A stretch of DNA of 60,000 nucleotides from Mobula hypostoma (Eukaryota), in the NCBI RefSeq assembly GCF_963921235.1, contig NC_086108.1, forward strand, positions 51,896,001 to 51,956,000. The letters run 5' to 3'. The position numbers and the translations under genes were made by a program. Below the pieces are notes generated by a model that was not told where the DNA came from, did not search any database, and saw only the letters and a program-made list of their open reading frames with translations. This document shows, piece after piece, positions 5,107 to 45,545 of this stretch. Position 1 is the first letter of the stretch. The number at the start of each line of letters is the position of its first letter.

Positions 5107-6933
5107 TAGGGTTAAACTCAGCTCAACATATCTTTTACAGTTAGGGTTGCCAACTTTCTCACTGCCAAATAAGGGACAAAAGTAGCAGTCAAATACGGGA
5201 CACTTGTGTTTACCCTGAGAAAGACTACCATGACCATGAAGCCTTGCGCGGGTACCCGTGTGCTCATGCGTGACGTGCGCGTATGTGACATGTGCATGTG
5301 CATACGTGCCAATTTTTTCCCCACAAATCGGTTTTGGCTTAATCTTCCCGACTACACTGTACATACATTATTTCTGCTTTATATAGGCTGTGTCTTTATC
5401 ATATCATTCCTGCTTTTACTACAAACCCCATTGCCAGAAAAGTTGGGATATTTTCCAAAATGCCATAAAAACAAAAATCTGTGATATGTTAATTCACGTG
5501 AACCTTTATTTAACTGACAAAAGTACAAAGAAAAGATTTTCAATAGTTTTACTGACCAACTTAATTGTATTTTGTAAATATACACAAATTTAGAATCTGA
5601 TGGCTAAAAAACACTCAACAAAAGTTGGGATAGAGTTAAAATAAGATTGAAAAGTGCACAGAAAAGTCATGCTAATGTGACAATTATAGCCACCTGGGCT
5701 CGGGAGTACTTCGGAAAACCATTGTCACTCAACACAGTCCGACGCTGCATCCAGAAATGCAACTTGAAACTGTATTACGCAAGGAGGAAGCCATACATCA
5801 ACTCTATGCAGAAACGCTGGCGAGTTCTCTGGGCCCGAGCTCATCTCAGATGGACTGAAAGACTGTGGAACCGTGTGCTGTGGTCAGATGAGTCCACATT
5901 TCAGCTAGTTTTCAGAAAAACGGGCGTTGAGTTCTCCATGCCAAAGATGAAAACAACAATCCAGATTGTTATCAGCGAAAGGTGCAAAAGCCAGCATCTG
6001 TGATGGTATGGGGGTACATCAGTGCCCACGGCATGGGTGAGTTGCATGTATGTGAAGGTACCATTGACTCTGAGGCGTATATTAGGATTTTAGAGAGACA
6101 TATGTTGCCATCAAGGCGACGTCTCTTCCCGGGACGTCCATGCTTATTTCAGCAGGACAATGCCAGACCACATTCTGCATGGGCTACAACAGCGTGGCTT
6201 TGTAGGCACAGAGTGCGTGTGCTTGACTGGCCTGCTGCCAGTCCAGATCTATCTCCTATTGAAAATGTATGGTGCATCATGAAGAGGAGACTCAGACAAC
6301 GGAGACCACGGACCGTTAAGCAGCTGAAGTCTTGTATCAAGCAAGGATGGACAAAATTTACAATTGTAAATCTACAATTAGTATCCTCAGTTCCAAAACG
6401 ATTAAAGTGTGTTATTAAAAGGAAAGGTGATGTAACACAATGGTAAACATGCCTCTGTCCCAACTTTTGTTGAGTGTGTTGCAGCCATCAAATTCTAAAT
6501 TTGTATATGTTTACAAAATACAATTAAGTTGGTCAGTAAAACTACTGAAAATCTTTTCTTTGTACTTTTGTCAGTTAAATAAAGGTTCACGTGAATTAAC
6601 ATATCACAGATTTTTGTTTTTATTGCATTTTGGAAAATATCTCAACTTTTCTGGAAATCGGGTTTGGTATATGTTAGTGTTATTTTAGGTTTTATGTGTT
6701 ATTTGGTATGATTTGGTAGGTTATCTTTTGGGTCTGGGAATGCTCAAAAATGTTTCCCATATAAATTAATGGTAATTACTTCTTCGCTTTACGCCATTTC
6801 CGCACGAAAAGTTTCATAGGAAAGCTGTACCTTAGCAGCGGAAATACTGGACAAGGGCGGTCCTGTATGGGACAAACCAATTTAGCCCAATATACGGGAT
6901 GTCCTGGCAAATACAGGACAGTTGGCAACCCTA
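5107..6933. mobile_element. hAT-type element nested in E1 (TAGGGTT TIRs)
   Basis: TAGGGTT at 5107, TAGGGTTGCCAAC at 5142 and GTTGGCAACCCTA at 6921-6933; perfect 8-bp TSD TGTTCAAG at 5099-5106 and 6934-6941. Confidence 0.75.
5422..6667 (+). mobile_element. Tc1 transposon copy A, internally deleted and frameshifted
   Basis: TA-flanked ~200-bp TIRs (CAAACCCC..). Transposase fragments contain WSDES, FQQDNARPH and SPDLSPIENVW. Same family as 30880-32483 but lacking about 355 bp that include the start codon. Confidence 0.93.
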
Positions 6934-7908: not shown

Positions 7909-9510
7909 GTAAGTATTCTTCTAATGCTGATTTTGATGTCTGTGGCAGAAACCTTAGACCAAGTATGCCTGCCCGGGGATGAGCCCCTGAGAGGCAGTAG
8001 CTGCTTGATTATTAGATTAATGTGCCTGTGTGTATCAGTTACACAATATGCTCAGATCATTGTGAAAAGATGCTGAATAATTGATGGAGATGGAGCTGCA
8101 AACATTACTTTCAAAATTTTCTTTCTGAGTGATCCTGACTTCTGACTTATTCTTCCTTTGTTCCTTTTTAAATGTTACTCACTTGGGACTAGGCATATGA
8201 TACACACCAGTAAGGAATGCTCAGCAAGCCATTTCCTGCTGTGATTTTGTTCTGGATCACATGCCCTTCCAAGAATGGTTCTTGATGTTAAATTTTGTAG
8301 TTATAAAATCTCAAGTGTTTTTTGGCTTGTGAAAAGTAATGGGTAATTAATAGCCAATTGGAAAATAAAAGCAGTCATTAGTCCATTCCAGAACTCCCCA
8401 TACAAACAAGAATTTCATTTGGTAGCAATCCATTCAACTGATGGGGACTGTCTTGTGCTGTGAACACAGGCTGAAATGCTGTGAGACAAAATATGCTGTA
8501 ATCACAGTTAATATGATGATGGTACTGTACTCATGTACAACAGTTCCTGTTGTCAGCCAGGCAGGGCTGCACACTTGAGCTCTACAGAAGTAGCAGAATC
8601 AGAAAGATTTATCAATAGCAGTCTTAGTAGAAAGGGCTAAATCGGCCATTTCATTTATGCAGCTTATCTCCAGGAGAAGAATGCGAATGCTGCAAGTGAC
8701 TTTCTGAAACTGACTAGAGCAGAGAATAGATCTTGAGGGGAAGGGAAGGCTTGCTAGTCAACATATATTCAGCACTGGGCAAAAACTGCTCTCAGCACAA
8801 TCTTAAACAGCTTTTTAACAGCTGTATGATTCAAGGACATTTTTTACAAACAGTACAGGGGGCAAAGTGTCACTGCTGAACAAACAAATTAAGACTGGTT
8901 CCAATTAGATAATTTTGAGGGCAATTTAGGTTTTCTGCTGGTGGTTGGCAAGTTCCATAATGGTGTGATATAGCCCGAGTAACTAATAATTGAGAGCAAT
9001 TGATGTTCTCATCCAGGTAGTATGTACTTTACATAATCAAAGCTTCTGCAAAGAAAGCATAAAGCTAATAAATGTGATTTGCTATTATTGCAAAAGTTTA
9101 AAATTTGTGTAAGGTAAGCATTTAAAATATGCTTTAGTCTTTTTTTTTTGGGGGGGGGAATGATTATGACCAGTTCTGAGTTCTGATTCTTTGATCTGTT
9201 GCAGCAATTTTGAGAACCCTCTAAATCTACATGTGAAATTTTACTTAAATATCATGCTTCTCAGTACATGAAGTCACAGTTGTAATTATTTTTTGAAAGG
9301 GGTGTATGTAAGCCAATTAATCAGAAAAGATCTTTAGTATATCTTTGATTAAAATAGTTTTAAAACTTGGACTTAAATTTACGATGTGCCCTTTTTGAAT
9401 CTGAGTTTTGAATTTCAGGACTGAGGTAAAACTCATAAGAAGATATTGCAACACACATAAAAGTTGCTGGTGAACGCAGCAGGTCAGGCAGCATCTCTAG
9501 GAAGAGGTGC

Positions 9511-9546
9511 AGTCGACGTTTCAGGCCGAGACCCTTCGTCAGGACT
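9511..9546 (-). ncRNA. Minimal type I hammerhead ribozyme
   Basis: Minus strand reads AGTC-CTGACGA-AGG GTCTCGG CCT-GAAA-CGTC-GACT: CUGANGA and GAAA cores, stem I AGTC/GACT, stem II AGG/CCT, GUC cleavage triplet. Confidence 0.85.
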
Positions 9547-10365
9547 AACTGAAGGAAGAGTGAGTAAGGGATTTGAAAGTTGGAGGGGGAGGGGGAGATC
9601 CAAAATGATAGAAGACAGGAGGGGGAGGGATGGAGCCAAGAGCTGGACAGGTGATAGGCAAAAGGGATACGAGAGGATCATGGGACAGGAGGTCTGGGAA
9701 GAAAGACAAGGAGGTGGGGGAGGGACCCAGAGGATGGGCAAGGGGTATATTCAGAGGGACAGAGGGAGAAAAAGGAGAGTGAGAGAAAGTGTGTATAAAA
9801 ATAAGTAACAGATGGGGTACGAGGGGGAGGTGGGGCATTAGCGGAAGTTAGAGAAGTCGATGTTCATGCCATCAGTTTGGAGGCTACCCAGACGGAATAT
9901 AAGGTGTTGTTCCTCCAACCTGAGTGTGGCTTCATCTTTACAGTAGAGGAGGCCGTGGATAGACATGTCAGAATGGGATGTGGAATTAAAATGTGTGGCC
10001 ACTGGGAGATCCTGCTTATATTCCGTCTGGGTAGCCTCCAACCTGATGGCATGAACATCAACTTCTCTAACTTCCGCTAATGTCCCACCTCCCCCTCGTA
10101 CCCCATCTGTTACTTATTTTTACACACACATTCTTTCTCTCACTCTCCTTTTTCTCCCTTCCCTCTGAATATACCCCTTGCCCATCCTCTGGGTCCCCCC
10201 CCCACCTCCTTGTCTTTCTTCCCGGACCTCCGGTCCCATGATCCTCTCGTATCCCTTTTGCCTATCACCTGTCCAGCTCTTGGCTCCATCCCTCCCCCTC
10301 CTATCATTTTGGATCTCCCCCTCCCCCTCCAACTTTCAAATCCCTTACTCACTCTTCCTTTAGTT

Positions 10366-10401
10366 AGTTCTGACGAAGGGTCTCAGCCTGAAACGTCGAC
10401 T
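10366..10401 (+). ncRNA. Minimal type I hammerhead ribozyme
   Basis: AGTT-CTGACGA-AGG GTCTCAG CCT-GAAA-CGTC-GACT; core intact, one U-G wobble in stem I. Confidence 0.8.
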
Positions 10402-12404
10402 GCACCTCTTCCTAGAGATGCTGCCTGGTCTGCTGCGTTCACCGGCAACTTTTATGTGTGTTGCTTGAATTTCCAGCATCTGGAGAATTCCTGTTGTTTG
10501 CGTAAGAAAATTTTGCAATACTGTATCTCCCACGTTTCAAGAGGTTGTTATGAAAGACATTAAGGTAGCATTTGAGAGGCAAAGAAGGGAAATCCAGAAC
10601 TTAAGGGCTTTGGCACTTGAAGGTACGACCATCAGATATGCAACAATTAAATCTGGAATGACTAGGAGTTTAGAATTTAAGATATGTTGGAATCTCAGAG
10701 GCTTACGGAGCTGATGAAATTACAAAGATTAGGCTGGAGAGACCATGGAAAGATTTGAAAGCTGGGATAAGAAATATAAAATTGTGATACGGCTTATGTA
10801 AGGCCCTGTATGGATTAGCAAACAAGAATTATGGTAAATCCGGGGACTTATTTTCAGTTATGACATAAACTACGAACATTTCAATGACTTAAAGTTTATG
10901 GTGAGTAGAATGGAGCAGGGCAAACAGTTGGAATAATTGAGACAGTGAAAATACCATGCAGTTCTTGATCCTCCTAATAGTTTGTGTCTCAGAGTTAGAT
11001 TCTTGCTGCACAGTATCGTAATCCTCCTTCCTCACCTTCTCGATCATGTATCACCCTCAGAGTAAAGTTTTTTTTTATATAAGTTTAAAAATAGTTTTCA
11101 CTTGAAATTTGCCGTGTTTAGTAAGTAATATTCCATACTCACTCTGCCTATAAGATTTAAGACTTTATGTACTGCAATGAGCTCACTTCCCTTTAAGTAA
11201 TCCATCATCTGCCTGTATATTTTGCCATCCAGGCATCAGATTTGAACCCTTTTTATGGAGATCTGCCAAACCTATTATAAATTTCTCTTTGAGGTATTTA
11301 AGTGCATTCTAGTGATGGAGACAGCTCTAAAGTTTGATGCTTTCTGTTCTTGCCAGTAAACATCAGTCCTTTCTTGCCAGTAAAAATACTTCTCAGGACC
11401 TATTCTTAGTCCTGACTGCAGACATAAATCAAAAACAAAATAAAACTGCCCTTTTATTCAACACACTGAATTATGATTTGGTTTCATTAAAGTCAATTTA
11501 AGAAAGATTTTAAACTTGGCTAGGAATTAAAATATTACACAAGTGCAAAGCAGGACAGAGAACTTGTGTTCTGCTCCTAGTTTGGACCACTCTTTTATTT
11601 GTAGGAAATATTTAAAAGATCTATAGGAAGTCTTGCCTGGGGACAACACAACAGACTGGAAACCCAGGAAAACAGAGTCTACATTTAATGGATCATTCAC
11701 TTTAATGGTTGGAATATTGTAGGCAATACCTCAGAAATGCTAATTCAAACATAGTCCAGTTCCAAGGAACTTCAATGAACACATATGTAAATGTGCACTA
11801 AAAATAAAAAAAAGTGACTTTTGGATTCTACCAATGCAAACCCTAATCTAATTTACCAGAGATAATTCAATAACCTGAAAATGAACTGGCATTCATCATG
11901 CTTTGTAATATTGCAATAATGAACTACATTAAATTGCATTTAAACCTTTTATTATATTTTGGCTTTCCTGGCCAGAAGCAATGTGAGCACTTTATCTAAT
12001 TGCTTCCTGTGCATGATGACTGGAAGGCACACTGCAGTTTTACAGAGGCCAAGGGAGAATTAAGAGCTGCATTACCAGACATTTAAACTGGTGCATATAT
12101 CTTGGTTAATACAATCGTTTAAAAAAACGTTCTTTGTTTCCAAGTAGACTGTATGGCAAGTTCCTTTGTTTGAAGAATATTAGTGAACTAGGAACTGTCT
12201 GAAGAGATCTGACTACTTCCATATTTTTTTTCAGAGCCATTTGCAACTAGCTATTTGAATTCCTAAACATTGAGTGTCTAATCGAACATAATTGCTAGGA
12301 TACCATGTCAAACAAAATAACACTGTTTCTACTTCAGAAGTAATTTATTCACTGACAATTATTTCAGAGAAAACCATCTAATAAAATAGCAACCTAATAA
12401 TCAG

Positions 12405-15649: not shown

Positions 15650-15930
15650 CAATTAAGAAAGGAAAAAGCAGTTAATGTTTTGGGGCGACATCCTTCATCA
15701 AGACTGGAAAGGAAGGGGGAAGAATCCAGAATAAGAAGGTGGGGAGTGGAATGAGTACAAGCTGGCAGGTGACAAGTGAGACTGGATGAATAAAGATGGG
15801 TCAGTGGGGGAGGGCAATGAAGTAAGTAACTAGAAGGTGATGGGTGGAAGAGCTCAAGGGTTAAAGAAGAAGGAATCTGACAGGAGAGGATAGTGGACCA
15901 TAGGAGAAAGAGAAGGAGGAAGGGCACTAG
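15650..15930 (-). mobile_element. Penelope-like 3' end remnant with decayed hammerhead
   Basis: Minus strand CCAGTCTTGATGAAGG..AAAACATTAACTG next to a purine-rich block similar to those at 24030 and 29960. Confidence 0.6.
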
Positions 15931-19904: not shown

Positions 19905-20650
19905 ACCAGCTTGCATTTTGGGAAGTTAAACCAGGGCAAGATATACAGAGTTAAATGTCAGAGCCTTAGAGAGTATTGTAGAAAAGGGAGACGAAAGGGT
20001 GCAAGTACATAGTTCCTTGAATATGACAACACAGGTAGACATGGTGAGAGACCTTTCCACAGTTGCCTTCATCAGTTAAGATATTGTGTTTGAAGAGTTT
20101 GGATATAATGTTATAGCCATATAGGACGTTGGTGAGACTTGGAGTATTGTGTGCAGTTATGGTCACCTAGCTACGATGCTATGATTGATGTCATTGAAGT
20201 GCATAGAGTGCAGTAAAGTATAGCACCAGAACTGGAGTGCTTGAATTACAAGGAGAGACTGGATAGGCTGAGACAATTTTTTTCCCCTGGAGCAGAGGGA
20301 CCTAAAGGTTGACCTTATAAAGGTAAAAAAATCATGAGGGGCATGGATAAGTGGATGATCAGTTTTCCTAAGGTAAGGGAGTATAAAGCTAGATGACATA
20401 GGTTGAAGATGAAAGGAGAAAGACTGAAAGGGGACTTGAGCATATGAAATGTGCTGCCAGAAGAGATGGTAGAGATGGGCATAATTACAACATTTAAAAG
20501 ACATTTAGACAGATGCATGGATAGGAAATGTTTAGAAGGACATGGGCCAAACTAGGAGAGTTGGACTAGCTCAGGTAGGCAACTTGGTTGGCATGGACAG
20601 ATTGGGTCAAAGGGCCTATTTCAGTGCTGCATAATTCTATAAATCTATTA
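19905..20650 (+). mobile_element. CR1 LINE 3' part
   Basis: GGAGTATTGTGTGCAGTTATGGTCACC (EYCVQxWSP motif) and a 3' tail GGGCCTATTTCAGTGCTG..TTCTAT. Confidence 0.75.
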
Positions 20651-21467
20651 AAGTATACAAAGAATCCTTTGTATATTAAAGTATACAAGAATCCCTTGCA
20701 GATTAATCCCTTGTATATTAAAGTATACAAGAATCCCATGTAGATTAAGGTATACAAGAATCCCTTGTAATTACTCCCTTGTAGATTAAAGTATACAAAA
20801 ATCCCATGTAGATTAAAGTATACAAGAATCCCTTGTAATTAATCCCTTGTATATTAAAGTATATAAGAATCCCTTGCAGATTAATCCCTTGTATATTAAA
20901 GTATACAAGAATCCCTTGCAGATTAATCCCTTGTATATTAAAGTATACAAGAATCCCATGTAGATTAAAGTATACAAGAATCCCTTGTAATTAATCCCTT
21001 GCAGATTAAAGTATACAAGAATCCCTTGCAGATTAATCCCTTGTATATTAAAGTATACAAGAATCCCATGTAGATTAAAGTATACAAGAATCCCTTGTAA
21101 TTAATCCCTTGCAGATTAAAGTATACAAGAATCCCTTGCAGATTAATCCCCTGTATATTAAAGTATACAAGAATCCCATGTAGATTAAAGTATACAAGAA
21201 TCCCTTGTAATTAATCCCTTGTATATTAAAGTATACAAGAATCCCTTGCAGATTAATCCCTTGTATATTAAAGTATACAAGAATCCCTTGCAGATTAATC
21301 CCTTGTATATTAAAGTATACAAGAATCCCATGTAGATTAAAGTATACAAGAATCCCTTGTAATTAATCCCTTGTAGATTAAAGTATACAAGAATCCCTTG
21401 CAGATTAATCCCTTGTATATTAAAGTATACAAGAATCCCTTGCAGGTTAATCCCTTGTATATTAAAG

Positions 21468-22648
21468 CAGGGGTCCCCAACCTTTTTTGCACTGTGGACC
21501 GGTTTAATATTGACAATATTCTTGCAGACCGGCCGACCCGGGGGGGGGGGGTAGGATTGCCAATGGACAAGAGTAGCAGTCAAATACGTTGTTTACCCAG
21601 AGGAAGACTACAATGACCATGAAGCCTTGTGCGGGTGCCAGTGCACATGCGTGACCTGCGCATGCATGTACCTGCCGATTTTTTTTTTCTTCTTCTGCAA
21701 ATCATTCTTGGCGATTCTGTTCGGAGGGGGGTGTTAATCACGACTGGAATATAGGCGATAAGTGGCTAATACACTCAATTTTGTTTCTAAAAGGGTTTAT
21801 CTAACAAATTTAATATTAAACACAGCACACATTTTCCTCGCATGAATATAGTGATAAGTCACTTATCAGGGGAGCTTGAAGTAAGTGTTGAACGAACTTC
21901 CAGTAGAAGTGGTAGAGGCAGGTTCGATATTATCATTTAAAGAAAAATTGGATAGGTATATAGACAGGAAAGGAATGGAGGGTTATGGGCCGAGTAGGTG
22001 AGAGTAGCGTTCAGCACGGACCAGAAGGGCCGAGATGGTCTGTTTCCGTGCTGTAATTGTTATATGGTTATAAAGTAAATCGATAGCATCATAACATTTT
22101 AAGTAACGTTTGGATATTAAACACACAGCACATATTTTCCTCGTATGAACATGTAAAATCATTGCAACACACCAATATCGCTGTTATCAGTGGGAGCCCT
22201 GGGCTTGTTTCCCTGCAACGAGATGGTCCTATCGAGGAGTGATGGGAGACAGCGATACTCGAATGGGGTTCCTTATGGCCAGTCTATTCTGCAATTTAGT
22301 TTTCGTTGCATTCATTGCAGAAAACTCCGCTTTGCAGAAAAATGTTGGAAATGGAAGCAATGTTTTCAGTGCTTTCGTGGCTATCTCAGGATATTTAGTC
22401 TTGAGTTTGATCCAGAATACCGGCAGAGATGTTATGTCAAACATACTTTTCAGCCCGCCATCATTTGCAAGTTTAAGGAGTTGATCTCCTTCCCACGCTG
22501 ACATGGATGACGCGCCGGTAATGACTTCGCATGCGTAATGGCACGACAGGGAATGAGGAAAGGTGCAGCTGACTCATATTGCCAAATCATATTGTTTCCT
22601 CGCAGCCTGGTAGCTCATGCTTTGCGGCCCGGTGGTTGGGGACCGCTG
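21468..22648 (-). mobile_element. Non-autonomous hAT Charlie-like element E2
   Basis: TIRs CAGGGGTCCCCAACC / GGTTGGGGACCGCTG; perfect TSD TATTAAAG (21460-21467, 22649-22656). Minus-strand ORF 22229-22504 is a hAT dimerisation domain (FWIK..YPEIATKALKTLLPFPT..C..FSAM). Confidence 0.93.
21875..22075 (+). mobile_element. CR1 3' end carried inside E2
   Basis: AACGAACTTCCAGTAGAAGTGGTAGAGGCAGG..TTTAAAGAAAAATTGGATAGGTAT..CTGTTTCCGTGCTGTA, a CR1 terminal pattern. Confidence 0.7.
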
Positions 22649-22969
22649 TATTAAAGTATACAAGAATCTCTTGCAGGTTAATCCCTTGTATATCAAAGTA
22701 TACAAGAATCCCTTGCAGATTAATCCCTTGTATATTAAAGTATACAAGAATCCCTTACAGAAGATGGCTCTGTTCAAACCTGCAGTTCACCTGCCATTCT
22801 TTCAAACATTAACTTCTCCCTTTATCCATCAGATTCTCTTTATATCAAGTGTTTCCAACCTGGGGTCCATTGACTTCTTGCTTAATGGTATTGCTCCATG
22901 GCATAAAAAAGGTTAGGACCCCTGTTTTAAGTGAATTCTATTTGAGTAAGATAAATGATAGAAGCAAAG

Positions 22970-23959: not shown

Positions 23960-24260
23960 AATCCCAACACAAACAAAATGCTGGAGGAACTCAATGGGTC
24001 ATGTAGGATTGATGGAAAAGAGTAAACAGATGAAGTTTCTGGCCAAGACCCTTCAACAGGACTGGAAAGAAAGGGGAGAAGTCAGTGTAAAGAAGTTGGG
24101 GAGGGGGGTGGAGGAAGTACAAGGTGGTAGATAGGTGAAACTTGTGGGGTGAAGTAAAGAGCTGGGAAGCTGATTACTGAAAGATAAAGGTTCTGGAGAA
24201 GGGGGAATCTAATAGGAAAGGACAGAAGACGATGGAACAAAGGGAAAGGGGAGGAGCAAA
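23960..24260 (-). mobile_element. Penelope-like 3' end remnant
   Basis: AATGCTGGAGGAACTCA..GGCCAAGACCCTTCAACAGGACTGG is a decayed hammerhead region followed by the purine-rich block. Confidence 0.65.
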
Positions 24261-26692: not shown

Positions 26693-28619
26693 TAGTTGCT
26701 GAAACCACAGAGTTATTGGTCAAAAGAGAAAGTAGAGAATTTTATGTATGTTAATGAAACTATGCTTGATCTGTTGAGCATTTCCAGCATTCTTCTGGTT
26801 TTGGGTCTTTGCAAAAGCTCTGATCTGTAATTCAAAGCTCTTATGTTGTTCCTTTCTTTGTGTTTTTGCTCTAACAGCTCTTATTAATCTGTCAACCAGG
26901 CAGTGAATAACCATAGTAATCCCAGCCTAATCCTATCAAGGATATTCCATTCTTCTCTCTATCCTTCACTCACCTGATCTGCAATTTAAACCTAACGTTT
27001 TCTCATTGTTACATTCTGATGAATAGTCTTGATCTGAAATCTAAAGCCTATTTTTTATGTATCACAGATTCAGCTTGACCTACTGAATGTTTCCATAATT
27101 TTATGTATTTACTTCAGTAAACTATGGGTAGTAGTTAACAAACACAGCTTTCAAAGTGGTGAAAACAAGATGGTGGAGGAACCCAGCTGGTCAGGCAGCA
27201 TCTGTGGAGGGAAATGGACAGTGGTTGTTTTGGGTGAAGACCCTTCATCTGGATTCATAAAGAGCTTACAAGAACAACATTGTAAGAAGATAAAACTGCT
27301 TTGTTAGGACATGCATGGTATTTAGAATATAATGCAAGAAGAGAATGATAACTGTAGAATGAATGTAAGTGACATGGAATTTTATTTTACTGGAACACTA
27401 ATGAGTTTACAATAGACCAATTGGTTCATGCATTTTTAAGTAAAACCCAGTTCACCTGCTTAAAGAATGGACAATAAAGCTACTAATACTTTCTTTATAT
27501 TGCAGGGACTACCTCAATGAAGACAGTGGCATACCTACCAAAGGTCCTGTGACAAGTAAGTAGATACAGCTTGTGTTTTAAGTCAGGTTTCATCAGTGGG
27601 ATACTGCCTCTAAACAAACTATTTGAACTAGTGAAAGTCAGCCAATATTGCCAGTCTGAGGTTAAATATTCGATTGTATGTTCTGAGCTTGGAACCTCAT
27701 CAACTGGACGCATAAGAAACAAATCCATCCAGGGTGTAAATCTGCAATTCTGTTTCTCATTATTTAGTACAACCATATAAAGTTAAAATTGTCTTCTAGA
27801 GAGAGATCCCCATTACATGAACATATACTCCATTAATAAAAGTGCAGTATCTTACATCTTACTATCTATTGGTATCCGGTGCAAGGATCAACCATCATGT
27901 GGGGAAGATTGATGATAAACCAAGTATATCTTCAAATATATAAAATATCAAAATAATTGATTGCAAGAAATAAAATGCAACAGTTAATTTGTTTTCATAA
28001 TGTTCCAGTGCACACCGCATGCTGCACACATAGCAGCAAATCACACAGCTCTGTCTGTGGGAAGATCAAGAACAGCAGTGACACGGAGGGAATAATGTCC
28101 TATTATAATTGCCTGCTGATCACTGCCAACAGTTATGCGGAGAGTCCTGGTGAAGCCCCGTTGGAAGTTTCTTAGCAGTATCCCTCTATTCACCCCACAG
28201 ACTCAACCAAAGAAACTGAATCTAGAGGCCAGAGCTGCCCCCTTCAGCCTCATTGTTTATGCTGATCTTGTCCTGGTTGGCAGCATGCATCCAGTTTTGT
28301 GTAGAGAATCCCAGACAGCACAGGGAAATTGAAGTTCTAATTTTTAGGGTTTGGGTATTGCTGGAGACTGTGCATTTATCACCTGTCTCTAATTAAATGT
28401 GGGAAGTGGTGGTGAGCTATTGCAAATTTACAAAACTTGTTGGTGCATGATTTGAAAGGGAACAAGGAGGTATTAAAGCCCTTGTTTTTTTAGGCCTATT
28501 ACCTCACAATGTCACCTGGGAACTAAGTGTATTCCATGTACAGCAAAGAGGAAATAAAGGGCGTTGGTCACCTGAAAAAGTGTGGTTTAAATGCATGAAT
28601 CCACAGGAACTACAGTATG

Positions 28620-28985: not shown

Positions 28986-29874
28986 AACTTTAGTGGCATG
29001 TGTGACCTTTACCTTCTGATGATCAAATCTAAAAGAAATAAGCGATTCTGATCTTTGGTAAAATCAGAATAAATGTCCCAAAAGGCAGTGATTGTAGATT
29101 GGAAATATTTTAAAATGGTATTTATTTTAAAAAAATTAAGGTAATGGCAGATATGGAGAAATGTAGAGAGAGTGAATTTAAACGATTGTTATACCTGATG
29201 GAGCAGGTTGAATGCTCTTTGCTTGTCCTAGTATATTTGCATGCACAAAGGAAGATGGAAAATTATTGAAAGGAAAATATTTTAATAAAGCTGTGAGTTG
29301 TACAATCTGATACAATTTTAATAAAATAGGTTTATAAAATATTATAATGTTTGCAATTTAAATAAAGCTGGTAAATTTGTCATTTGGGGATATCAAATAT
29401 TTTATATTGCTTATTTTAGTGATCCCTGGAGAGTGCATGCATTAAAAAAATATAAATATCTGATATTAACCAGATTGAGCATTGAAACTTGCATGCCACA
29501 TACTATGATTTTTTTAAGGGGTAATTATTTTCACAATTTTGGTCTTGTGTCACGTTAAGTATATTTTGTCTACTTCTGTATTATCACATTATAGCAGTTG
29601 TGACGTGTGAAGTTCCATTGTAATAATAGGCAACCTTCGTACAATATATTGAAATGAAAGTGACTACTAAACAGTTTAATTATCTTATGACTCCAGTTCT
29701 TGAATTAACTCATTTGATTAAACATGGATGCCATTAGTAGATGTTTCTTTTAATGAGTATTTCCAGTTTTTTTTGGCTAAGAAGCCTGCATAGTACACCA
29801 AGTTTGGCACATTTCCCTTTCATTTGTGAGATGTAGCTTGAACTCCTGTTCTGGGATATGACAGCCAAAAATGA

Positions 29875-30431
29875 ATAAACTGCAGATGCTGGAAATCCAG
29901 AAAAACTCGCACCAGATGCCAGAGAAACTCGGGTCATGCAGCAGCTGTGGAAATTAACAAACAGTTGACGTTTCGAACCAAAACCCTTCATCAGGACTGG
30001 AAAAGAAGGGGGAAGATGTCAGAATATGAAATTGGGGAAAGGGAAGGAGGACAAGCTAGAAGGTGATGATGGGTGAAGCCAGGTGGGTGGCAGAGCGGGA
30101 ATGAAATGAGAAGCTGAGAGGTGATAGGTGGAGAAAGTAAAGGACTGGAAAAGAAGGAATCTGATTGGAGAGGAGAGTGGACTATGGGAGAAAGGGAAGA
30201 AGGAGGGGCACCCAGCTTCCTACTTCCTTGGCTGCTCCCCCACCCACCTGGCTTCAACTGTCACCTTTTATATTGGTCTCCTTCCCCTCACCCCCCACCT
30301 TCTTAGACTGGAATCTCCCCCCTTCCTTTCCAGTCCTGATGAAAGTTCTTGACCTGATACATTGACTGTTTTTTCATGTTCAAAACTGCTGTCTGACCAG
30401 CTGAGTTCCTCCAGCATTTTGAGTGTGTTGA
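29875..30431. mobile_element. Older palindromic Penelope-like insertion P5 (tail on the left)
   Basis: The left arm starts with the tail CTGCAGATGCTGGAAATCC and holds a minus-strand hammerhead (29962-29998, CTGATGA..GAAACGTC). Orientation flips near 30210. The right arm has a decayed hammerhead (30332-30368) and ends at GTGTGTTG. Confidence 0.75.
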
Positions 30432-30879
30432 GCCGGAACTGAAGTTATTTTCAGCATTCTCAACCTACTTCCTAGTGAATGTGATGCCAATGCGTGTTGC
30501 TCCAAGACTTTGATATACATCTGCAACTCTTCCTCTCATCATCTCACACACCTTGAGACATGCTAGAAACTCTTTCAGGCATCAATGCTGAGTAGAGGAG
30601 CTTTTAAAGCATATATTCTGAGGAATCTTTTCTCATTCATATTTGTCCAGCTTACATGGTTGCTTTCATGAGTCTAGATGTGAGGAACTCCTTGCATTTG
30701 GTCCAAGTTCCCTTTTTCAACATTGTAGGATTTGTCACAAGCAGTACTTAAACTAGATGCTTGGAAAATTAGAAACTTGCTATTTCAAGGCAAATATGGT
30801 ACTTAAATCCCAATGTCAACAGAAACCCAGAACAAATCATATTAAATGATGGTGGAAGCTCCTATTCTCTTGATAACTA

Positions 30880-32483
30880 CAAACCCCATTTCCAGAAAAG
30901 TTGGGATATTTTCCAAAATGCAATAAAACCAAAAATCTGTGATATGTTAATTCACATGAATCTTTATTTAACTGACAAAAGTACAAAGAAAAGATTTTCA
31001 ATAGTTTTACTGACCAACTTAATTGTATTTTGTAAATATACACAAATTTAGAATTTGATGGCTGCAACACACTCAACAAGAGTTGAGACAGAGTTAAAAT
31101 AAGATTGAAAAGTGCACAGAATATTCAGGTAACACCGATTTGGAAGACTTCACATTAGGCAGGCTAATTGGTAGCAGCTGAGGTATCATGACTGGGTGTA
31201 AAAGTAGCGTCCATCAAAGGCTCAGTCTTTGCAAGCAAGGATGGGTCGTGGCTCACCCCTTTGTGCCAAAATTCGTGAGAGAATTGTTAGTCAGTTCAAA
31301 AGGAACATTTCTCAATGCAAGATTGCAGAGAATTTGGGTCTTTCAACATCTACAGTACATGATATTGTGAAAAGATTCAGAGAATTCAGAGACATCTCAG
31401 TGCATAAAAGGCAAGGTCAGAAACCACTGTTGAATGCGCGTAATCTTCAAGTCCTCAGGTGGCACTGCCTAAGAAACCGTCATGCTACTGTGACAATTAT
31501 CGCCACCTGGGCTCGGGAGTACTTCAGAAAACCATTGTCACTCAACACAGTCCGTCGCTGCATCCAGAAATGCAACTTAAAACTGTATTATGCAAGGAGG
31601 AAGCCATACATCAACTCTATGCAGAAACGCCAGCGAGTTCTCTGGGTCCGAGCTCATCTCAGATGGACTGAAAGACTGTGGAACCGTGTGCTGTGGTCAG
31701 ATGAGTCCACATTTCAACTAGTTTTCGGAAAAAACAGGCGTCGAGTTCTCCGTGCCAAAGATGAAAACGACCATCCAGATTGTTATCAGCGAAAGGTGCC
31801 AAAGCCAGCATCTGTGATGGTATGGGGGTGCATCAGTGCCCACGGCATGGGTGAGTTGCATGTATGTGAAGGTACCATTGACTCTGAGGTGTATATTAGG
31901 ATTTTAGAGAGACATATCTTGCCATCAAGGCGACGTCTCTTCCTGGGACGCCCACGCTTATTTCAGCAGGACAATGCCAGACCACATTCTTCACGGGCTA
32001 CAACAGCGTGGCTTTGTAGACACAGAGTGCGTGTGTTTGACTGGCCTGCTGCCAGTCCAGATCTATCTCCTATTGAAAATGTATGGCGCATCATGAAGAG
32101 GAGAATCAGACAACGGAGACCACAGACTGTTGAGCAGCTGAAGTCTTGTATCAAGCAAGAATGGACAAAATTTCCAATTGCAAATCTATGACAATTAGTA
32201 TCCTCAGTTCCAAAACGATTATAAAGTGTTATTAAAAGGAAATGTGGTGTAACACAATGGTAAACATGCCTCTGTCCTAACTTTTGTTGAGTGTGTTGCA
32301 ACCATCAAATTCTAAATTTGTGTATGTTTACAAAATACAATTAAGTTGGTAAGTAAAACTACTGAAAATCTTTTTTTTGTACTTTTGTCAGTTAAATAAA
32401 GGTTCACGTGAATTAACATATCATAGATTTTTGTTTTTATTGCATTTTGGAAAATATCCCAACTTTTCTGGAAATGGGGTTTG
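30880..32483 (+). mobile_element. Tc1 transposon copy B, full length (1604 bp)
   Basis: TA duplication at 30878-30879 and 32484-32485; ~200-bp TIRs CAAACCCCATTTCCAGAAAAGTTGGGATA. Confidence 0.96.
31241..32263 (+). pseudogene. Tc1 DD34E transposase, 340 codons with two late in-frame stops
   Basis: ATG at 31241 (MGRGSPL), HTH region, WSDES, FQQDNARPH and PDLSPIE with 34 residues between D and E. TGA at 32189 and TAA near 32222 precede the natural end ..TQW*. Confidence 0.92.
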
Positions 32484-32799
32484 TACACAAACCTGATCCT
32501 GATGATATCATGGCAAGATGTGATATCCTTATCCAGCTCTCCTACTAACTTTGCTCTCCAGGAACATCTGAATTTTAACATCTCATATTGTACATAACAT
32601 TACCTGTGAAATGTAAACTGTTACAAGGCAGGAGCTGGGGAGAGTAGATTGGGAGCAGTTGTTAATGGTAAAGACAACATCTGATGTGTGAGTCATTTAA
32701 AGATAGTTGGTCGGATTTCAGGACTAACATGTTCCTATAAGGAAGGAAAGCAAAGGTGGCGAGATTTGGGAATTATGTATGATGAGAGATGTTGCAAAT

Positions 32800-33560
32800 T
32801 TAGTCAAAAACAAAAAGTATATGTTAGGTTAAGGTACTTGAATAGGACAGAAACCTGGAGAAGTGCAAAAGAAGCAGGAAAGAAACTAAACAGAGAATCA
32901 GGAAGGCTACATGGGGTTGTGAAATGACATTGTTGTGTAAGATTAACGAGAATCCCAAGACATTTTATACATACTAAAAGCAGGGGGTAAACTGTACTTA
33001 ACATAAGTATTCACCAAAGAGGGCATGGAGGATAATAGGATCGGGGGGACAATGCTGATGTTCTAGGGCATGTTGCTACCAAGGAGCACACATCAAAGTT
33101 GCTGGTGAACGCAGCAGGCCAGGCAGCATCTGTAGGAAGAGGTGCAGTCGACGTTTCAGGCCGAGACCCTTTGTCAGGACCTGACGAAGGGTCTCGGCCT
33201 GAAACGTCGACTGCACCTCTTGACGAAGAGTCTCGGCCTGAAACGTCGACTGCACCTCTTCCTACAGATGCTGCCTGGCCTGCTGCGTTCACCAGCAACT
33301 TTGATGTGTGTTGCTTGAATTTCCAGCATCTGCAGAATTCCTGTTTGATACCAAGGAGAGGAGGTTTTGGATCTCTTGAAGAACATTAAGGTGGGTAACT
33401 TTCTAGGGCTTGATGGGATCTATCACAAGTTATCAAGAGAAATGAGAGGAGATTGCTGGGACCTTGACAGCAGTCTTTGTTTTCACTTCAGCACTGGTGA
33501 TGTTCCAAAGGATTGAAAAATAGCCAATATTGTTTCTCTATTTTAATACGAGCAATGGAA
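32800..33560 (+). mobile_element. CR1 ORF2 fragment, old, interrupted by P2
   Basis: GAGGTTTTGGATCTCTTGAAGAACATTAAGGTG..GATGGGATCTAT reads as EVLDLLKNIKV..DGIY, the CR1 pre-RT region. Confidence 0.6.
33087..33344. mobile_element. Mini palindromic Penelope-like insertion P2 with three hammerhead motifs
   Basis: Symmetry centre at 33179 (GTCAGG-A-CCTGAC). TSD TTGCTACCAAGGAG (33073-33086) / TTGATACCAAGGAG (33345-33358). The right arm has a 39-bp tandem duplication. Confidence 0.9.
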
Positions 33561-35034: not shown

Positions 35035-35458
35035 GTGACCCAAGACGTGCAAAGGAATGGGTCCATAACCCATTTGTGAATGTCCCCAGTGAATCATCCT
35101 TGACAGCATGGGAAAAAGATCAACCCCTCGAGCTTGCAAATGATGGTGGGCTGAAAAGTATGTTTGACATAACATCTCTGCCGGCATTCTGGATCAAAGT
35201 CAAGGTTGAATATCCTGAGAAAGCCACAAAAGCACTGAAAACATTGCTTCCATTTCTAACATCATATCTCTGAAGCAGAGTTTTCGGCAATGAATGCAAT
35301 GAAAATCACGGAATAGACTGGACAGAAGCGATTGCCGATTGCGTCGCCTCTGATCTGGGCCGACATTTACGTGCTGGGCAGCACCTAATCAATTAGCTTC
35401 ACACATCAAAGTTGCTGGTGAACGCAGCAGGCCAGGCAGCATCTATAGGAAGAGACGC

Positions 35459-35494
35459 AGTCGACGTTTCAGGCCGAGACCCTTCGTCAGGACT
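35459..35494 (-). ncRNA. Minimal type I hammerhead ribozyme
   Basis: Minus strand AGTCCTGACGAAGGGTCTCGGCCTGAAACGTCGACT, fully intact core. Confidence 0.87.
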
Positions 35495-35784
35495 AACTGA
35501 AGGAAGAGTGAGTAAGGGATTTGAAAGCTGGAGGGGGGGGGAGATGCAAAATGATAGGAGAAGACAGGAGGGGGAGGGATAGAGCCGAGAGCTGGACAGG
35601 TGATGGGCAGAAGGGGATACGAGAGGATCATGGGACAGGAGGTCCGGGAAGAAAGCCGGGGGGGGGTGACCCAGAGGATGGGCAAGAGGTATATTCAGAG
35701 GGACAGAGGGAGAAAAAGGAGAGTGAGAGAAAGAATGTGTGCATAAAAAAGAGTAACAGATGGGGTACGAGGGGGAGGTGGGGC

Positions 35785-36350
35785 CTAGCGGAAGTTAGAG
35801 AAGTCAATGTTCATGCCATCAGGTTGGAGGCTACCCATACGGAATATAAGGTGTTGTTCCTCCAACCTGAGTGTGGCTTCATCTTTACAGTAGAGGAGGC
35901 CGTGGATAGACATGTCAGAATGGGAATGGGATGTGGAATTAAAATGTGTGGCCACTGGGAGATCCTGCTTTCTCTGGCGGACAGAGCGTAGATGTTCAGC
36001 AAAGCGGTCTCCCAGTCTGCGTCGGGTCTCACCAATATATAAAAGGCCACATCGGGAGCACCGGACGCAGTATATCACCCCAGTCGACTCACAGGTGAAG
36101 TGATGCCTCACCTGGAAGGACTGTTTGGGGCCCTGAATGGTGGTAAGGGAGGAAGTGTAAGGGCATGTGTAGCACTTGTTCCGCTTACACAGATAAGTGC
36201 CAGGAGGGAGATCAGTGGGGAGGGATGGGGGGGACGAATGGACAAGGGAGTTGTGTAGGGAGCGATCTCTGCGGAATGCAGAGAGAGGGGGGGAGGGAAA
36301 GATATGCTTAGTGGTGGGATCCCGTTGGAGGTGGCGGAAGTTACGGAGAA
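35785..36350 (-). pseudogene. Penelope-like ORF 3' part: GIY-YIG endonuclease domain (5'-truncated)
   Basis: CKRNKCYTC..FTCESTGVIYCVRCSRCGLLYIGETRRRLGDRFAEH..VATHF..EEQHLI..GMN. The first ~21 aa of the listed ORF come from the inverted arm. Confidence 0.92.
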
Positions 36351-36729
36351 ACAGGTTGGAGGAACAACACCTTATATTCCGTATGGGTAGCCTCCAACCT
36401 GATGGCATGAACATTGACTTCTCTAACTTCCGCTAGGCCCCACCTCCCCCTCGTACCCCATCTGTTACTCTTTTTTATGCACACATTCTTTCTCTCACTC
36501 TCCTTTTTCTCCCTCTGTCCCTCTGAATATACCTCTTGCCCATCCTCTGGGTCACCCCCCCACCGTCTTTCTTCCCGGACCTCCTGTCCCATGATCCTCT
36601 CGTATCCCCTTCTGCCTATCACCTGTCCAGCTCTCGGCTCTATCCCTCCCCCTCCTGTCTTCTCCTATCATTTTGCATCTCCCCCCCCCCCCCCAGCTTT
36701 CAAATCCCTTACTCACTCTTCCTTCAGTT

Positions 36730-36765
36730 AGTCCTGACGAAGGGTCTCGGCCTGAAACGTCGACT
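36730..36765 (+). ncRNA. Minimal type I hammerhead ribozyme
   Basis: AGTCCTGACGAAGGGTCTCGGCCTGAAACGTCGACT; predicted cleavage 3' of C36761. Confidence 0.87.
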
Positions 36766-37849
36766 GCGTCTCTTCCTATAGATGCTGCCTGGCCTGCTGC
36801 GTTCACCAGCAACTTTGATGTGTGTTGCTTGAATTTCCAGCATCTGCAGAATTCCTGTTGTAATCAATTAGCTTGTTTATTTCGGCTTTATTCTTAAAGA
36901 TGTGCTGGGTGCGTTCTGGCCACCGCTGCACTCTTCGCAGCCCGGAGCTTTGGGACCACTGTTATAATTAACTTTTCACTATATTCATGCGAGGAAAATA
37001 TGCGCTCTGTGTTTAATGTTAAATTGGTTAGGTAAACCCCTTTAGAAACGAAATTGAGTTTATTAGCCACTTATAAGTGACTTACAGTTGACTTATCACC
37101 TATATTCCAGTCGTGATTAACACCCCCCCCCCCCCGCAACCCCGGTTGGCCGGTCCGCAAGAATATTGTCAAAGTTAAACCGTTTTGCGGTGCAAAAAAG
37201 GTTGGGTACCCCTGGTGTAGAGAACATCCTTAAGTCATTTCCTCGGTCCACCTAGTAATCTTCTGCCAAAATTGGAGTTTGAAGTATGTCAAGTGTCTGG
37301 TTCTAGGCACAGGGATGACATAACCTACCTATTAAAGAAGATAGAATATAGTCCAGGAATATTTATTCACTTATTCTGAAAATGGATTGGGAGAATTTTG
37401 TGGAAATATCATAGATGGTATGTCTCCAAGGGGACTGCCAACCCGACATCCGTCCACAGATCTTCTCCGCAGAGCAGTCTGATTTGGATTCTAGCTCCTG
37501 CTGCTGACTCTTAATTTACTGCCTAAAACCTCTAACTCTCTCATCCTTGTCTTCTCCCCCCACCACTAGTTTCACCATGCTGCTCCCATCCAAAACCATC
37601 TCAAAGAACCTAGAAGACAATGAAGTCTAAGCACGATCTTGAAGGAGACCATAGCTTAGCGCCATCTTGACTGGAAGTCATGTAATAACATGTAATTCTG
37701 CCTGTTATTATCAATTTCAGCAACAAACATCACTAATAGGTGAAAATGGTGTTTGCAAATCTATTTTAAAAAGTTGGGCATAAGTGAAATGAAAAGTAAC
37801 AAAGATTTTATTGAATTAAGAAACAACAGGAAGAAACGAGAACAACCAA

Positions 37850-39150: not shown

Positions 39151-40145
39151 TTCAGGATGATTGAATTTGCTTTATAAATATAACATTTTTCAGTATGTAT
39201 TGTTCTGTCACTGGAGCACTGGATATAAAAAATCATTTTGAACCTATGTAACCTCTGGCTAAAAGAATAATTGGGACTGAATAGGAATTTTTGAAGTGAA
39301 GTAAACTGTCTTCAGCAGTTAGCTAAGACAGGCTCACTACCAGTTCTCCTTGGTTTGCAGAGAGACATTGGGAGTTTGATAACATTGTACGTTGTACCCT
39401 CGTTTGAGTTGGAGAAGGACTTGCCAATACGGACAGGAATGAATATCCATCTGTAATTAAGTCAGGGCCTAGCAAAGGGAATAATTGATAAGGACTGGAA
39501 AGTACATCCATCTGTAATTAAACCTTGATTTAGCAGACTTTCTAATCTAAGTAATTAAGTTTTGCACCAACAGACTTGGTGGACGTACCAGTTCTAATAA
39601 CATCTTGCAACAGTAATATATGGGGCTTATGTATATGTATAAATATACAGCTGTAACCTGACTAAGTGGGCCCACTTGTCAGATGGTGGCAGTACTTGCG
39701 TGCCTTCCCTTCGACAACTGGGTCTCAAACTCCTGCAGGACGGTGCACAATAAACTGTTATGACGATGAGAAGCTGGTCTCCCGAGTTTTATTCAGATTG
39801 GACTTTAAAAGTACTTTTGTTAGAAGTTGCCAGTTTAAAGCTGATCAAAAAAAGCAATGAATTTGAACTCAATTAATCTGTTAAGTGTGCTATGCCTATA
39901 AAAACTGTTGTATCATGTAAAGCCCCTATTTTTCACCATTGCCTATCAGACACTTCATCTGGTTTAACATTGATGTCATTTTGGCACTTTACAGGACTAT
40001 TCAGCCTGACTACCTTAACGACAACTAGAGGTAGATCATAAAAGTGGCCTTTTCAGGATTACCCACATCCCATGGGGGGAAAAAACTATCCCCTAAGGTC
40101 ACCTAACTAGCATAAAGTGCTGAGCCATGACACAAAACTAACAGT

Positions 40146-40337
40146 CGACACACACAATGCTGGAGGAGCTCAGCAGGCCAGGCAGCATCTATGGAAAAGA
40201 ATGAACAGTTGAGGTCTTGACCTGAAACGTCAACTATTTACTCTTTTCCATAGATGCTGCCTGGCCTGCTAAGTTCCTCCAGCGTTTCGTGTAGGTTGCT
40301 TGGATTTCTAGCATCTGCAGATTTTTCAAATTTGTGT
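40146..40337. mobile_element. Mini palindromic Penelope-like insertion P4
   Basis: GCTGGAGGAGCTCAGCAGGCCAGGCAGCATCTATGGAAAAGA is inverted to TCTTTTCCATAGATGCTGCCTGGCCTGCTAAGTTCCTCCAGC, with the tail on the right. TSD CACAAAACTAACAGT (40131-40145) / CACAGAACTAACAGT (40338-40352). Confidence 0.85.
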
Positions 40338-40356
40338 CACAGAACTAACAGTGATA

Positions 40357-44097: not shown

Positions 44098-44599
44098 ACT
44101 TTGAGGTTCCTTTTAGCCAATAAGTGAAGATCCTTAACCAGTGCAGTGAAGCTATTAATATTTTATATAATGAAGTTGAGAAAATTGGTTGTATTTCTGG
44201 GTATAATTTTAATTCCAGGTTCTAGTTTAACATGGATAATTTGAATCTACTTAACTTGTCATTGGATGTAATACCCACTCTGCTCCATTCCTCAATGTTC
44301 TTCGCAAACCACCTCTTCCTCTACATTCCCATGGCCTCTGCTTACTGAAATAAACAGAAAAATGCTGGAAGCACTCAGCAGGTCAGGCAGCACTTGTGGA
44401 TATTGCAGGTTGAAGACGTTTGTCAGAACAGACTCACTAATTGTTGCTAACTGAAACCTTCTCTCCCCTCACGGCTTTTGCTTCTCACCCAATTGTGCTC
44501 CTTACTCACATTCCAGAAGAATAGTGAGCCTTCCTAAAATTCAACAAAGGGATGTCAGTTCCTCTCAGTGCTAATTTTAATGGAAACTTTAGATAACTG

Positions 44600-45545
44600 C
44601 TACTGTTGGAAATCTGAATCAAAGGGAACACTGAGCCAGTCAGTCAGCATCTGTGGAGGGAGAAACAGAATTAACTTTTTAGGTCAATGTCTCTTCATCA
44701 GAACTGGAAAAGTGTGATTCATGTTGGGGGAGATGGTGGAGAAAACAAGGAAAATGTTTGTCATAGGATGAAGGGTAAGTTTGTCCAGGAGGCGTAATTG
44801 TTAGTACATGGCAGAGAAAAATTGAGAGAGAAAGGGAACTAAAGAATATATTTGAACTATGAGATACTGTTACTGGAAATCTGAACCAAAAGGGAATGTT
44901 AGAGATGCCTGGAAGATCAGACAATACTCATGGGGAGAGAGAGGGGTAGAAAGAACCCAAGTTGTCATAATCACTGGACGGTTTTATGCCAGAACTGGCC
45001 AGTTCTGATGCAATTAGGAAAGGCTGGATAGCTGTAATTGTTTAACATTGAATCCCAAGGGCTACGATATCCAAGGTGAAATATGAGATGCTGTTCGTCC
45101 AGAGTGTACTGGCATTACTCAGACAATGTAAAGGGTCAAAGACAGAGAGGTCTGAACAGAAGTACAATGGAAGCTTGCGCTCACCATTGTGGACTAAGCA
45201 TAAGTTCATTGCCAATCCATGTGCGGCTTCTCCAGTGTAGAGGTGACCACATTGTTAGCACAAGATGCAGTGTTTCAAATCTGAAGGAGTGCAACATTGC
45301 TACATTATCTAGAAGGCCTGTGATGATCTTGTGAGAAACTGTGGTTGGTGGAGATGGAAGAGTGAACCAGGTCCCTTTGGAAAATTTCAGAACTGAAAGG
45401 GGAGGAGAGGGAATGATGTGGCTGGTATTGTAATCTTGTTGAAGATGATGCATTGTCAGAGGAGGTAGGGAGGTGGAATGTGAGGGCAAGGGTAACTCCA
45501 TCTTCAGGACCGGCAATCAAAGGAAGTACAAGAGGTACTTTCAAG
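44600..45545 (-). mobile_element. Old Penelope-like element remnant
   Basis: Decayed hammerhead (CTTCATCAGAACTGG), purine-rich block and HHLQQD..HIIPSPPLS similar to the P3 ORF. Confidence 0.65.

Follow-up and report, generated by a model that had tools for sequence, protein, structure and literature searches.

Head-to-head insertions of a Penelope-like element carry a minimal type I hammerhead motif in the ray Mobula hypostoma

Minimal hammerhead ribozymes (min-HHRs) occur in the pseudo-LTRs (pLTRs) of metazoan Penelope-like elements (PLEs) (Cervera and De la Pena 2014, PMC4209133). Single minimal motifs are described as inactive in that work, and dimers of PLE hammerheads are reviewed as able to cleave (PMC6765202). 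Genomic PLE copies often have an inverted, 5′-truncated partner, usually arranged head to head, with a 30–40-bp tail at one end (PMC3846280, PMC8557442). A CX2-5CxxC motif in the linker between reverse transcriptase and endonuclease marks the Neptune and Nematis clades (PMC8557442). For PAc, an element of Anolis carolinensis, the tail has been tied to two internal reverse-transcription start sites, and the PAc hammerhead needed protein to cleave (Frangieh et al. 2024, PMC11167929).

Here we analysed a 60,000-nucleotide stretch of the Mobula hypostoma genome, referred to throughout as the window. On the evidence of sequence and comparison, the motif at positions 36730–36765 is a genuine minimal hammerhead motif and lies close to the 3′ end of a PLE. 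A literature search that was thin in subscription journals and excluded supplements found nothing on this ray PLE family or on protection by fold-back.

The hammerhead motif and its predicted fold

Four intact motifs were identified in the window, all by sequence and by a descriptor scan, and the focal copy also by alignment:

36730–36765, + strand: minimal type I hammerhead motif, focal copy, with predicted cleavage 3′ of C36761
35459–35494, − strand: hammerhead motif identical to the focal copy, in the left arm of the same palindrome
9511–9546, − strand: hammerhead motif identical to the focal copy
10366–10401, + strand: hammerhead motif with a U·G wobble in stem I and one change in loop II

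In the focal copy, stem I has 4 bp, or 5 bp if an outer wobble is counted, and the motif continues with CUGACGA, stem II and GAAA. Where stem III would be expected there is a self-complementary ACGU without loop III, and C17 lies at position 36761. CUGANGA, GAAA and UH thus follow one another in the order of the min-HHR core, and the ends are joined in helix I. The copy at 10366–10401(+) differs from the focal copy at two positions and keeps the fold. The palindromic 15.2–16.2 element without loop III, a further mark of min-HHRs, is ACGU in all four motifs.

A strict descriptor (core, stems I and II with a stem I of at least 4 bp, palindromic stem III) matched the window at exactly these four motifs and matched none of 30 mononucleotide shuffles. 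Sequence and descriptor therefore agree with the original prediction, which had placed a hammerhead core with a loopless ACGT stem III at these sites. The hammerhead scan that it had proposed gave a divided answer: the strict descriptor was positive, but an Rfam scan of the window returned seven matches at E ≤ 1, none of them from a hammerhead family. The loose core pattern alone discriminated weakly, with 16 window matches against 6.82 expected and 1 of 100 shuffles scoring as high.

The register of stem II was examined in a structural alignment of 43 rows, made up of nine window motifs and 34 of 45 motifs from metagenome relatives (described below). Seven duplicates and four length-changed relatives were omitted, as were two identical window copies and the window copies at 33, 40 and 44 kb. 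With stem II drawn as GGGU/GCCU behind an unpaired A, which gives 4 bp closed by a 4-nt loop, 89.0% of cells paired across the 43 rows, compared with 65.1% for the AGG/CCU pairing originally proposed. The first pair of the latter register, 12–24, was unpaired in 36 of 43 rows, and the earlier register is thus one base off. The unpaired base between A9 and helix II, which the alignment supports, matches the bulge before helix II in the min-HHR consensus of PMC4209133.

Pair 10.1–11.1 is G·U in the window subfamily and G-C in 32 of the 43 rows; the G10.1–C11.1 pair is called highly conserved, not invariant, in PMC4209133. Both departures of the window motifs from the stem II of their relatives stay standard pairs. 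Stem pairs changed on both sides in 14 cells (reached in none of 500 shuffles) spread over four pairs (a number reached in 146 of 500 shuffles), and these changes represent about two lineages. Pair 3–34, for example, is U-A in eight rows and C-G in 28.

In nearest-neighbour folding, with energies that omit the non-canonical contacts of the core, the monomer, the dimer and the solo arm all preferred non-active folds. For the right arm alone the predicted probability of forming stem I was 0.001, because upstream bases are predicted to pair with the core. According to the predicted folds, the core would be sequestered by these bases, which lie just 5′ of stem I (segment 36706–36748) and are complementary to it, also when the inverted arm is absent. 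The same segment resembles a pyrimidine tract ending in AG, like a splice acceptor, and in Penelope of Drosophila virilis an intron ends at helix I (PMC4209133). As a splice acceptor the site was rejected: there were no splice ends among the 15 listed of 2755 contig joints, and the relatives have no AG. By analogy with the motifs of PMC4209133, the zero-loop ACGU makes dimer-dependent cleavage plausible.

Head-to-head insertions of a Penelope-like element

Each palindrome consists of two 5′-truncated copies of the element with their 3′ ends facing outward. The components of the focal insertion, and the other head-to-head pairs of the window, are as follows:

35386–35399: target-site duplication, left copy, perfect over 14 nt
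35400–36351, − strand: left arm, a 5′-truncated PLE copy (endonuclease end, 3′ UTR and pLTR), tail-less
35788–36351, − strand: 188-codon open C-terminal PLE ORF fragment with CX4CxxC linker, GIY-YIG endonuclease and CCHH residues
36352–36860, + strand: right arm, an inverted copy with 5′ truncation, shorter than the left arm and sharing 99.4% identity with it
36825–36860, + strand: 36-nt tail on the right arm only; family contigs end at 36856/36861
36861–36874: target-site duplication, right copy, perfect over 14 nt
9452–10502: second head-to-head insertion, arms 97.1% identical, with a 42-nt tail on the right
33087–33344: third, tiny head-to-head insertion, arms beginning at the 5′ edge of the motif and 97.8% identical
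29879–30430: decayed head-to-head pair, older and from a related subfamily, with about 74% complementarity between the arms and the tail on the left one
40148–40323: older mini head-to-head pair, with a tail on its right arm and arms that start within the hammerhead

The second insertion is flanked by a target-site duplication of 16 nt with two mismatches (9436–9451 and 10503–10518), and the third by one of 14 nt with one mismatch (33073–33086 and 33345–33358). In these three young insertions the left arms end at one common base, and the right arms extend 42, 34 and 36 nt in the order of their positions. The combination of 5′ truncation, inverted partner, one-sided tail and target-site duplication known from PLEs was present in all three. 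Palindromes with the motif on both strands had been predicted, and at 9 and 35 kb they are there, but they are not symmetrical, as a tail of 34–42 nt is found on one arm only. The young palindrome at 33087–33344 had been missed; its three motifs are all damaged, by a change of G8 to A in 33146–33181(−), a broken stem I in 33177–33212(+) and the loss of stem I and C3 in 33216–33251(+). The tandem partial motifs of this insertion were considered as a cis dimer and rejected, both being without an intact stem I. Within its right arm, 39 nt comprising the motif and its 3′ flanking sequence are directly duplicated (33181–33258), suggesting a template slip during copying.

Arms are more alike within an insertion (97.1, 97.8 and 99.4% identity) than between insertions (92.6–96.8%), as would be expected if both arose in one event. 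The arms of the tiny insertions (33146–33212 and 40212–40225) begin at the 5′ edge of the hammerhead or inside it and not at the cut site; five of 15 listed public-contig joints also start at 35492–35494, the 5′ edge of the motif. Candidate decayed target-site duplications were found by eye around the two older pairs, at 29863–29875 and 30431–30443 (13 nt, three mismatches) and at 40129–40143 and 40336–40350 (15 nt, two mismatches). The 35-kb insertion landed in an older repeat (35094–35385 and 36875–37050) that is related to 22342–22510. In each of two DNA runs one contig joins 35373 to 36861; these contigs were not counted as an empty allele, because the joint is misplaced from the expected site and the flank is itself a repeat.

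The ORF fragment at 35788–36351(−) lies at the centre of the palindrome and matches Pfam GIY-YIG (PF01541) at 23.5 bits, against a cut-off of 22.6. Endonuclease residues C98, C101, H120 and H136/H142 are conserved, and two cysteines lie between GIY and YIG, as in EN+ PLEs. The linker of the window protein, C55-x4-C60-x2-C63, conforms to the CX2-5CxxC of Neptune and Nematis. Among 485 candidates, 16 protein relatives were found at E ≤ 1e-20. The closest longer proteins were from Mobula hypostoma itself (93% identical) and Hypanus sabinus (83%), followed by sharks (62–66%). Reverse transcriptase is absent from the ORF fragments of the 5′-truncated window copies. Upstream of the endonuclease in relatives, P0005 and P0011 match RVT_1 below its cut-off and P0001 begins with a YIDD motif; in public contigs, loose ends at 36350 continue into upstream coding sequence (P0001). 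The element is thus likely to be an EN+ PLE, of Neptune type if the linker motif is taken to assign the clade. The hammerhead lies in the pLTR, where PLE hammerheads are found. The proposal of a minimal type I hammerhead belonging to a PLE is consistent with the GIY-YIG ORF, with the Mobula relative and with the motif in distant relatives.

Three ray gene models, named as a kinase-domain protein (P0003), a mucin (P0004) and a chitinase-domain protein (P0009), contain this endonuclease fragment. They are PLE copies read into gene models, through either exonisation or an annotation artefact. From one public DNA run, 274,883 contigs map to a 1.85-kb stretch with the PLE copy, a depth that is not a copy number. 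The family is young, with arms up to 99.4% identical, and very abundant in DNA contigs.

Repeats of other kinds are also present in the window. A Tc1/mariner-type transposon occurs in two copies (5418–6666 and 30876–32485) with terminal inverted repeats of about 215 nt, the second of which has a 327-codon open DDE_3 transposase frame at 31208–32188. A 353-codon frame at 1023–2081(−), probably a pol fragment of an LTR retrotransposon, has a reverse transcriptase domain and matches Integrase_p58_C weakly. A complex tandem array with periods of 42, 68 and 110 nt occupies 20550–21593 and 22607–22803.

Conservation in distant relatives and decay of copies

Metagenome contigs yielded 474 loci that encode a relative of the endonuclease; the best 80, at about 37–50% identity, served as distant relatives. 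A scan of metagenome contigs for the exact 32-nt motif gave no matches. The strict descriptor, with stem I of at least 4 bp, matched none of the 56 relative loci with enough downstream sequence, because stem I of the relatives has 3 bp. When stem I was relaxed to 3 bp after this null result, matches were obtained at 19 of 61 loci in the sense direction, at 1 of 61 in the antisense direction and in 1 of 610 shuffles; at the same 61 loci a stem I of at least 4 bp gave one sense match, one antisense match and none in shuffles. The relatives' motif keeps a constant position, about 85–155 nt behind the endonuclease; the matches share the full core, and ACGU is present in 15 of the 19.

When 141 nt of the window pLTR were aligned locally with one relative, only 51 nt around the motif aligned. 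Between lineages the core is therefore better conserved than its flanks; the original prediction had named a core no better conserved than its surroundings across family copies, together with a lack of cleavage, as grounds for rejection. All core nucleotides and ACGU are identical between the window family and relatives whose endonuclease is less than 50% identical. Across 61 copies of the relatives' family, the fraction of the majority base was 0.93 in the core and 0.87 and 0.85 in the two flanks, a difference that could be explained by a mixture of subfamilies. U4 is changed to C in nine of 45 listed motifs of the relatives, possibly an altered-core subfamily.

The relatives also share the geometry of the window copies. 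Of 23 antisense pLTR copies, 21 lie upstream of the endonuclease, corresponding to 21 of the best 80 of 474 loci, and no tandem pLTR was found upstream of the endonuclease among the same 80. Head-to-head insertion therefore characterises the clade.

The four listed young motifs have an intact core, but five of seven older window copies carry mutations in it (9 of 77 positions). Older, decayed pLTR copies with hammerhead remnants, from related PLE subfamilies, are found at 2612–2686, 15650–15706, 23967–24064, 27013–27105, 27165–27255, 44357–44431 and 44625–44706.

Origin of the arrangement and comparison with described elements

The reading that best accounts for these observations, to which we give a probability of roughly 0.9, is that the motif is the pLTR hammerhead of a likely Neptune-type PLE, presumably retained in master elements for processing of their own RNA and copied into both arms by ordinary insertion. 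The motif is present on both strands because each insertion is two 5′-truncated copies placed head to head. By analogy with the insertions described in PMC3846280 and PMC8557442, this is the usual PLE product, and the arrangement is likely to be a by-product of how the element copies itself. The element's protein would nick AT-rich DNA, and reverse transcription would start at two internal sites 34–42 nt apart, as it does in vitro for the anole element, which would produce the tailed and tail-less ends. Selection on master elements would keep the hammerhead. In these it may process its own transcript either as a dimer, with two ACGU sequences forming helix III, or together with the element's protein. 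The truncated genomic copies would be passive. On read-through, their RNA would form a long hairpin in which the motif is hidden, but as a side effect, and the copies decay.

It is also possible, though we consider it improbable, that the motif is a structurally compromised relic that cleaves in no context and was amplified passively with the 3′ end of the element, an account that overlaps the PLE-hammerhead reading as to origin. The first pair of stem II is G·U and stem I has only 4–5 bp, and pairing of the core with upstream sequence and with stem III is predicted to out-compete the active fold. As reported in the text of PMC11167929, hammerhead mutants were without effect on insertion in vitro and no RNA-seq ends fell at the cut site; eight of nine Xenopus dimers are described as uncleaved (10.64898/2026.07.22.740005). 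Against a relic stands the identity of core and ACGU across lineages whose alignment fails outside the 51-nt block. Moreover, the two departures in stem II preserve pairing, and the nearest-neighbour energies that disfavour the active fold ignore the non-canonical contacts of the core.

The original prediction went further and proposed that fold-back could silence cleavage and protect a host pre-mRNA; in full, this reading has the motif able to cut read-through host transcripts and the inverted arm kept for its silencing effect. The physical part of this proposal is predicted to hold, because in folds of both long palindromes, transcribed in both directions, 36, 36, 35 and 35 of the 36 motif nucleotides pair with the other arm. 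Sequestration is already predicted in a transcript ending at 36765, when the motif has just been completed, and the antisense arm is transcribed first in either direction. All four intact window motifs sit in palindromes, and related retrozymes are reported to be under-represented in Xenopus introns (10.64898/2026.07.22.740005).

We regard protection of a host pre-mRNA as very unlikely. The window has 564 stop-free frames of at least 45 aa, and the 300 longest of these contained no recognisable host exon; those of the 300 that passed Pfam cut-offs were transposon-derived only, a result compatible with a long intron or with exons that are short. RNA transcribed across a palindrome contains one sense motif, so no cis dimer could form, and single minimal motifs were not cleaved in the assays described in PMC4209133. 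The solo arm is itself predicted to misfold, and older palindromes decay. The same geometry recurs in 21 of the 80 distant relatives, and Naiad PLEs, which are hammerhead-less, make the same inverted insertions (PMC8557442), as expected of the usual PLE product. The lack of an exon, the misfolding of the solo arm, the decay of older copies and the inactivity of published single motifs therefore leave host protection unsupported. A variant seems to us just as unlikely: in a genome crowded with near-identical copies, solo sense motifs would pair in trans between separate nascent transcripts and cleave host pre-mRNAs, and head-to-head insertions, in which transcription always reaches the antisense arm first, would be selectively tolerated in introns as self-silenced ribozymes. 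Were host-protective fold-back true, it would be a new selective force on the insertion geometry of retroelements.

The view of the palindromes as miniature inverted-repeat DNA transposons, or as hairpins of microRNA type, with a chance hammerhead match, which their long terminal inverted arms with flanking duplications and the best Rfam matches (microRNA hairpins at 33141–33217, generic and below gathering scores) might suggest, is refuted by the GIY-YIG ORF fragment at the palindrome centre, by the one-sided tail and target-site duplications, with arm and duplication lengths that differ between insertions, by the lack of descriptor matches in 30 shuffles and by recurrence of the motif at the same place in distant PLEs.

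The motif of the preferred reading, a PLE pLTR hammerhead, resembles the min-HHRs of PMC4209133 in its type I core, in a helix I that is short and a helix II preceded by an unpaired base, in its pLTR location and in a palindromic 15.2–16.2 without loop III. It differs in helix II, which here has 4 bp and opens with G·U in place of the conserved G-C. Opposite-strand motif pairs are 100–700 bp apart in PMC4209133 and about 820 and 1240 bp apart here. No cartilaginous fish was noted in the part of its text compared here, and its supplement, like that of the retrozyme preprint (10.64898/2026.07.22.740005), could list chondrichthyan motifs.

With the Neptune and Nematis PLEs (Craig et al. 2021, PMC8557442; Arkhipova et al. 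2013, PMC3846280) the element shares a C-terminal GIY-YIG with CCHH residues, the CX2-5CxxC linker, heavy 5′ truncation, an inverted head-to-head partner, a 30–40-bp tail at one end and a target-site duplication. Unlike those elements, the window copies have no tandem (direct) pLTR and no reverse transcriptase, and their tails reach 42 nt. Target-site duplications are 14–16 nt here, compared with the 8–10 nt cited for a rotifer PLE.

In PAc (PMC11167929) too, the hammerhead lies immediately 5′ of a tail whose extent is set by two ends, and the target is AT-rich, as seen here in the 35-kb target-site duplication. However, PAc belongs to the Penelope/Poseidon clade, whereas the window element is by its linker motif likely of Neptune type, and the PAc ORF begins at stem II, a position that here reads ACG in a frame that stops after 14 codons. 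In vertebrates, one chondrichthyan genome among them, type I hammerheads related to pLTRs are also found in non-LTR retrozymes (10.64898/2026.07.22.740005). Retrozymes are tandem direct repeats of hammerhead units, whereas the window copies are inverted and flanked by target-site duplications, and one has coding sequence; the sole direct repeat found was the 39-nt duplication at 33 kb.

Both min-HHRs in PLE pseudo-LTRs and inverted one-tailed insertions are already published. As it stands the finding therefore matters little in itself, being a known kind of element and not a device that protects host RNA. Nevertheless, a family that is young and abundant is a natural test bed for cutting by minimal PLE hammerheads in vivo, which a genome-wide analysis of orientation and conservation could therefore test.
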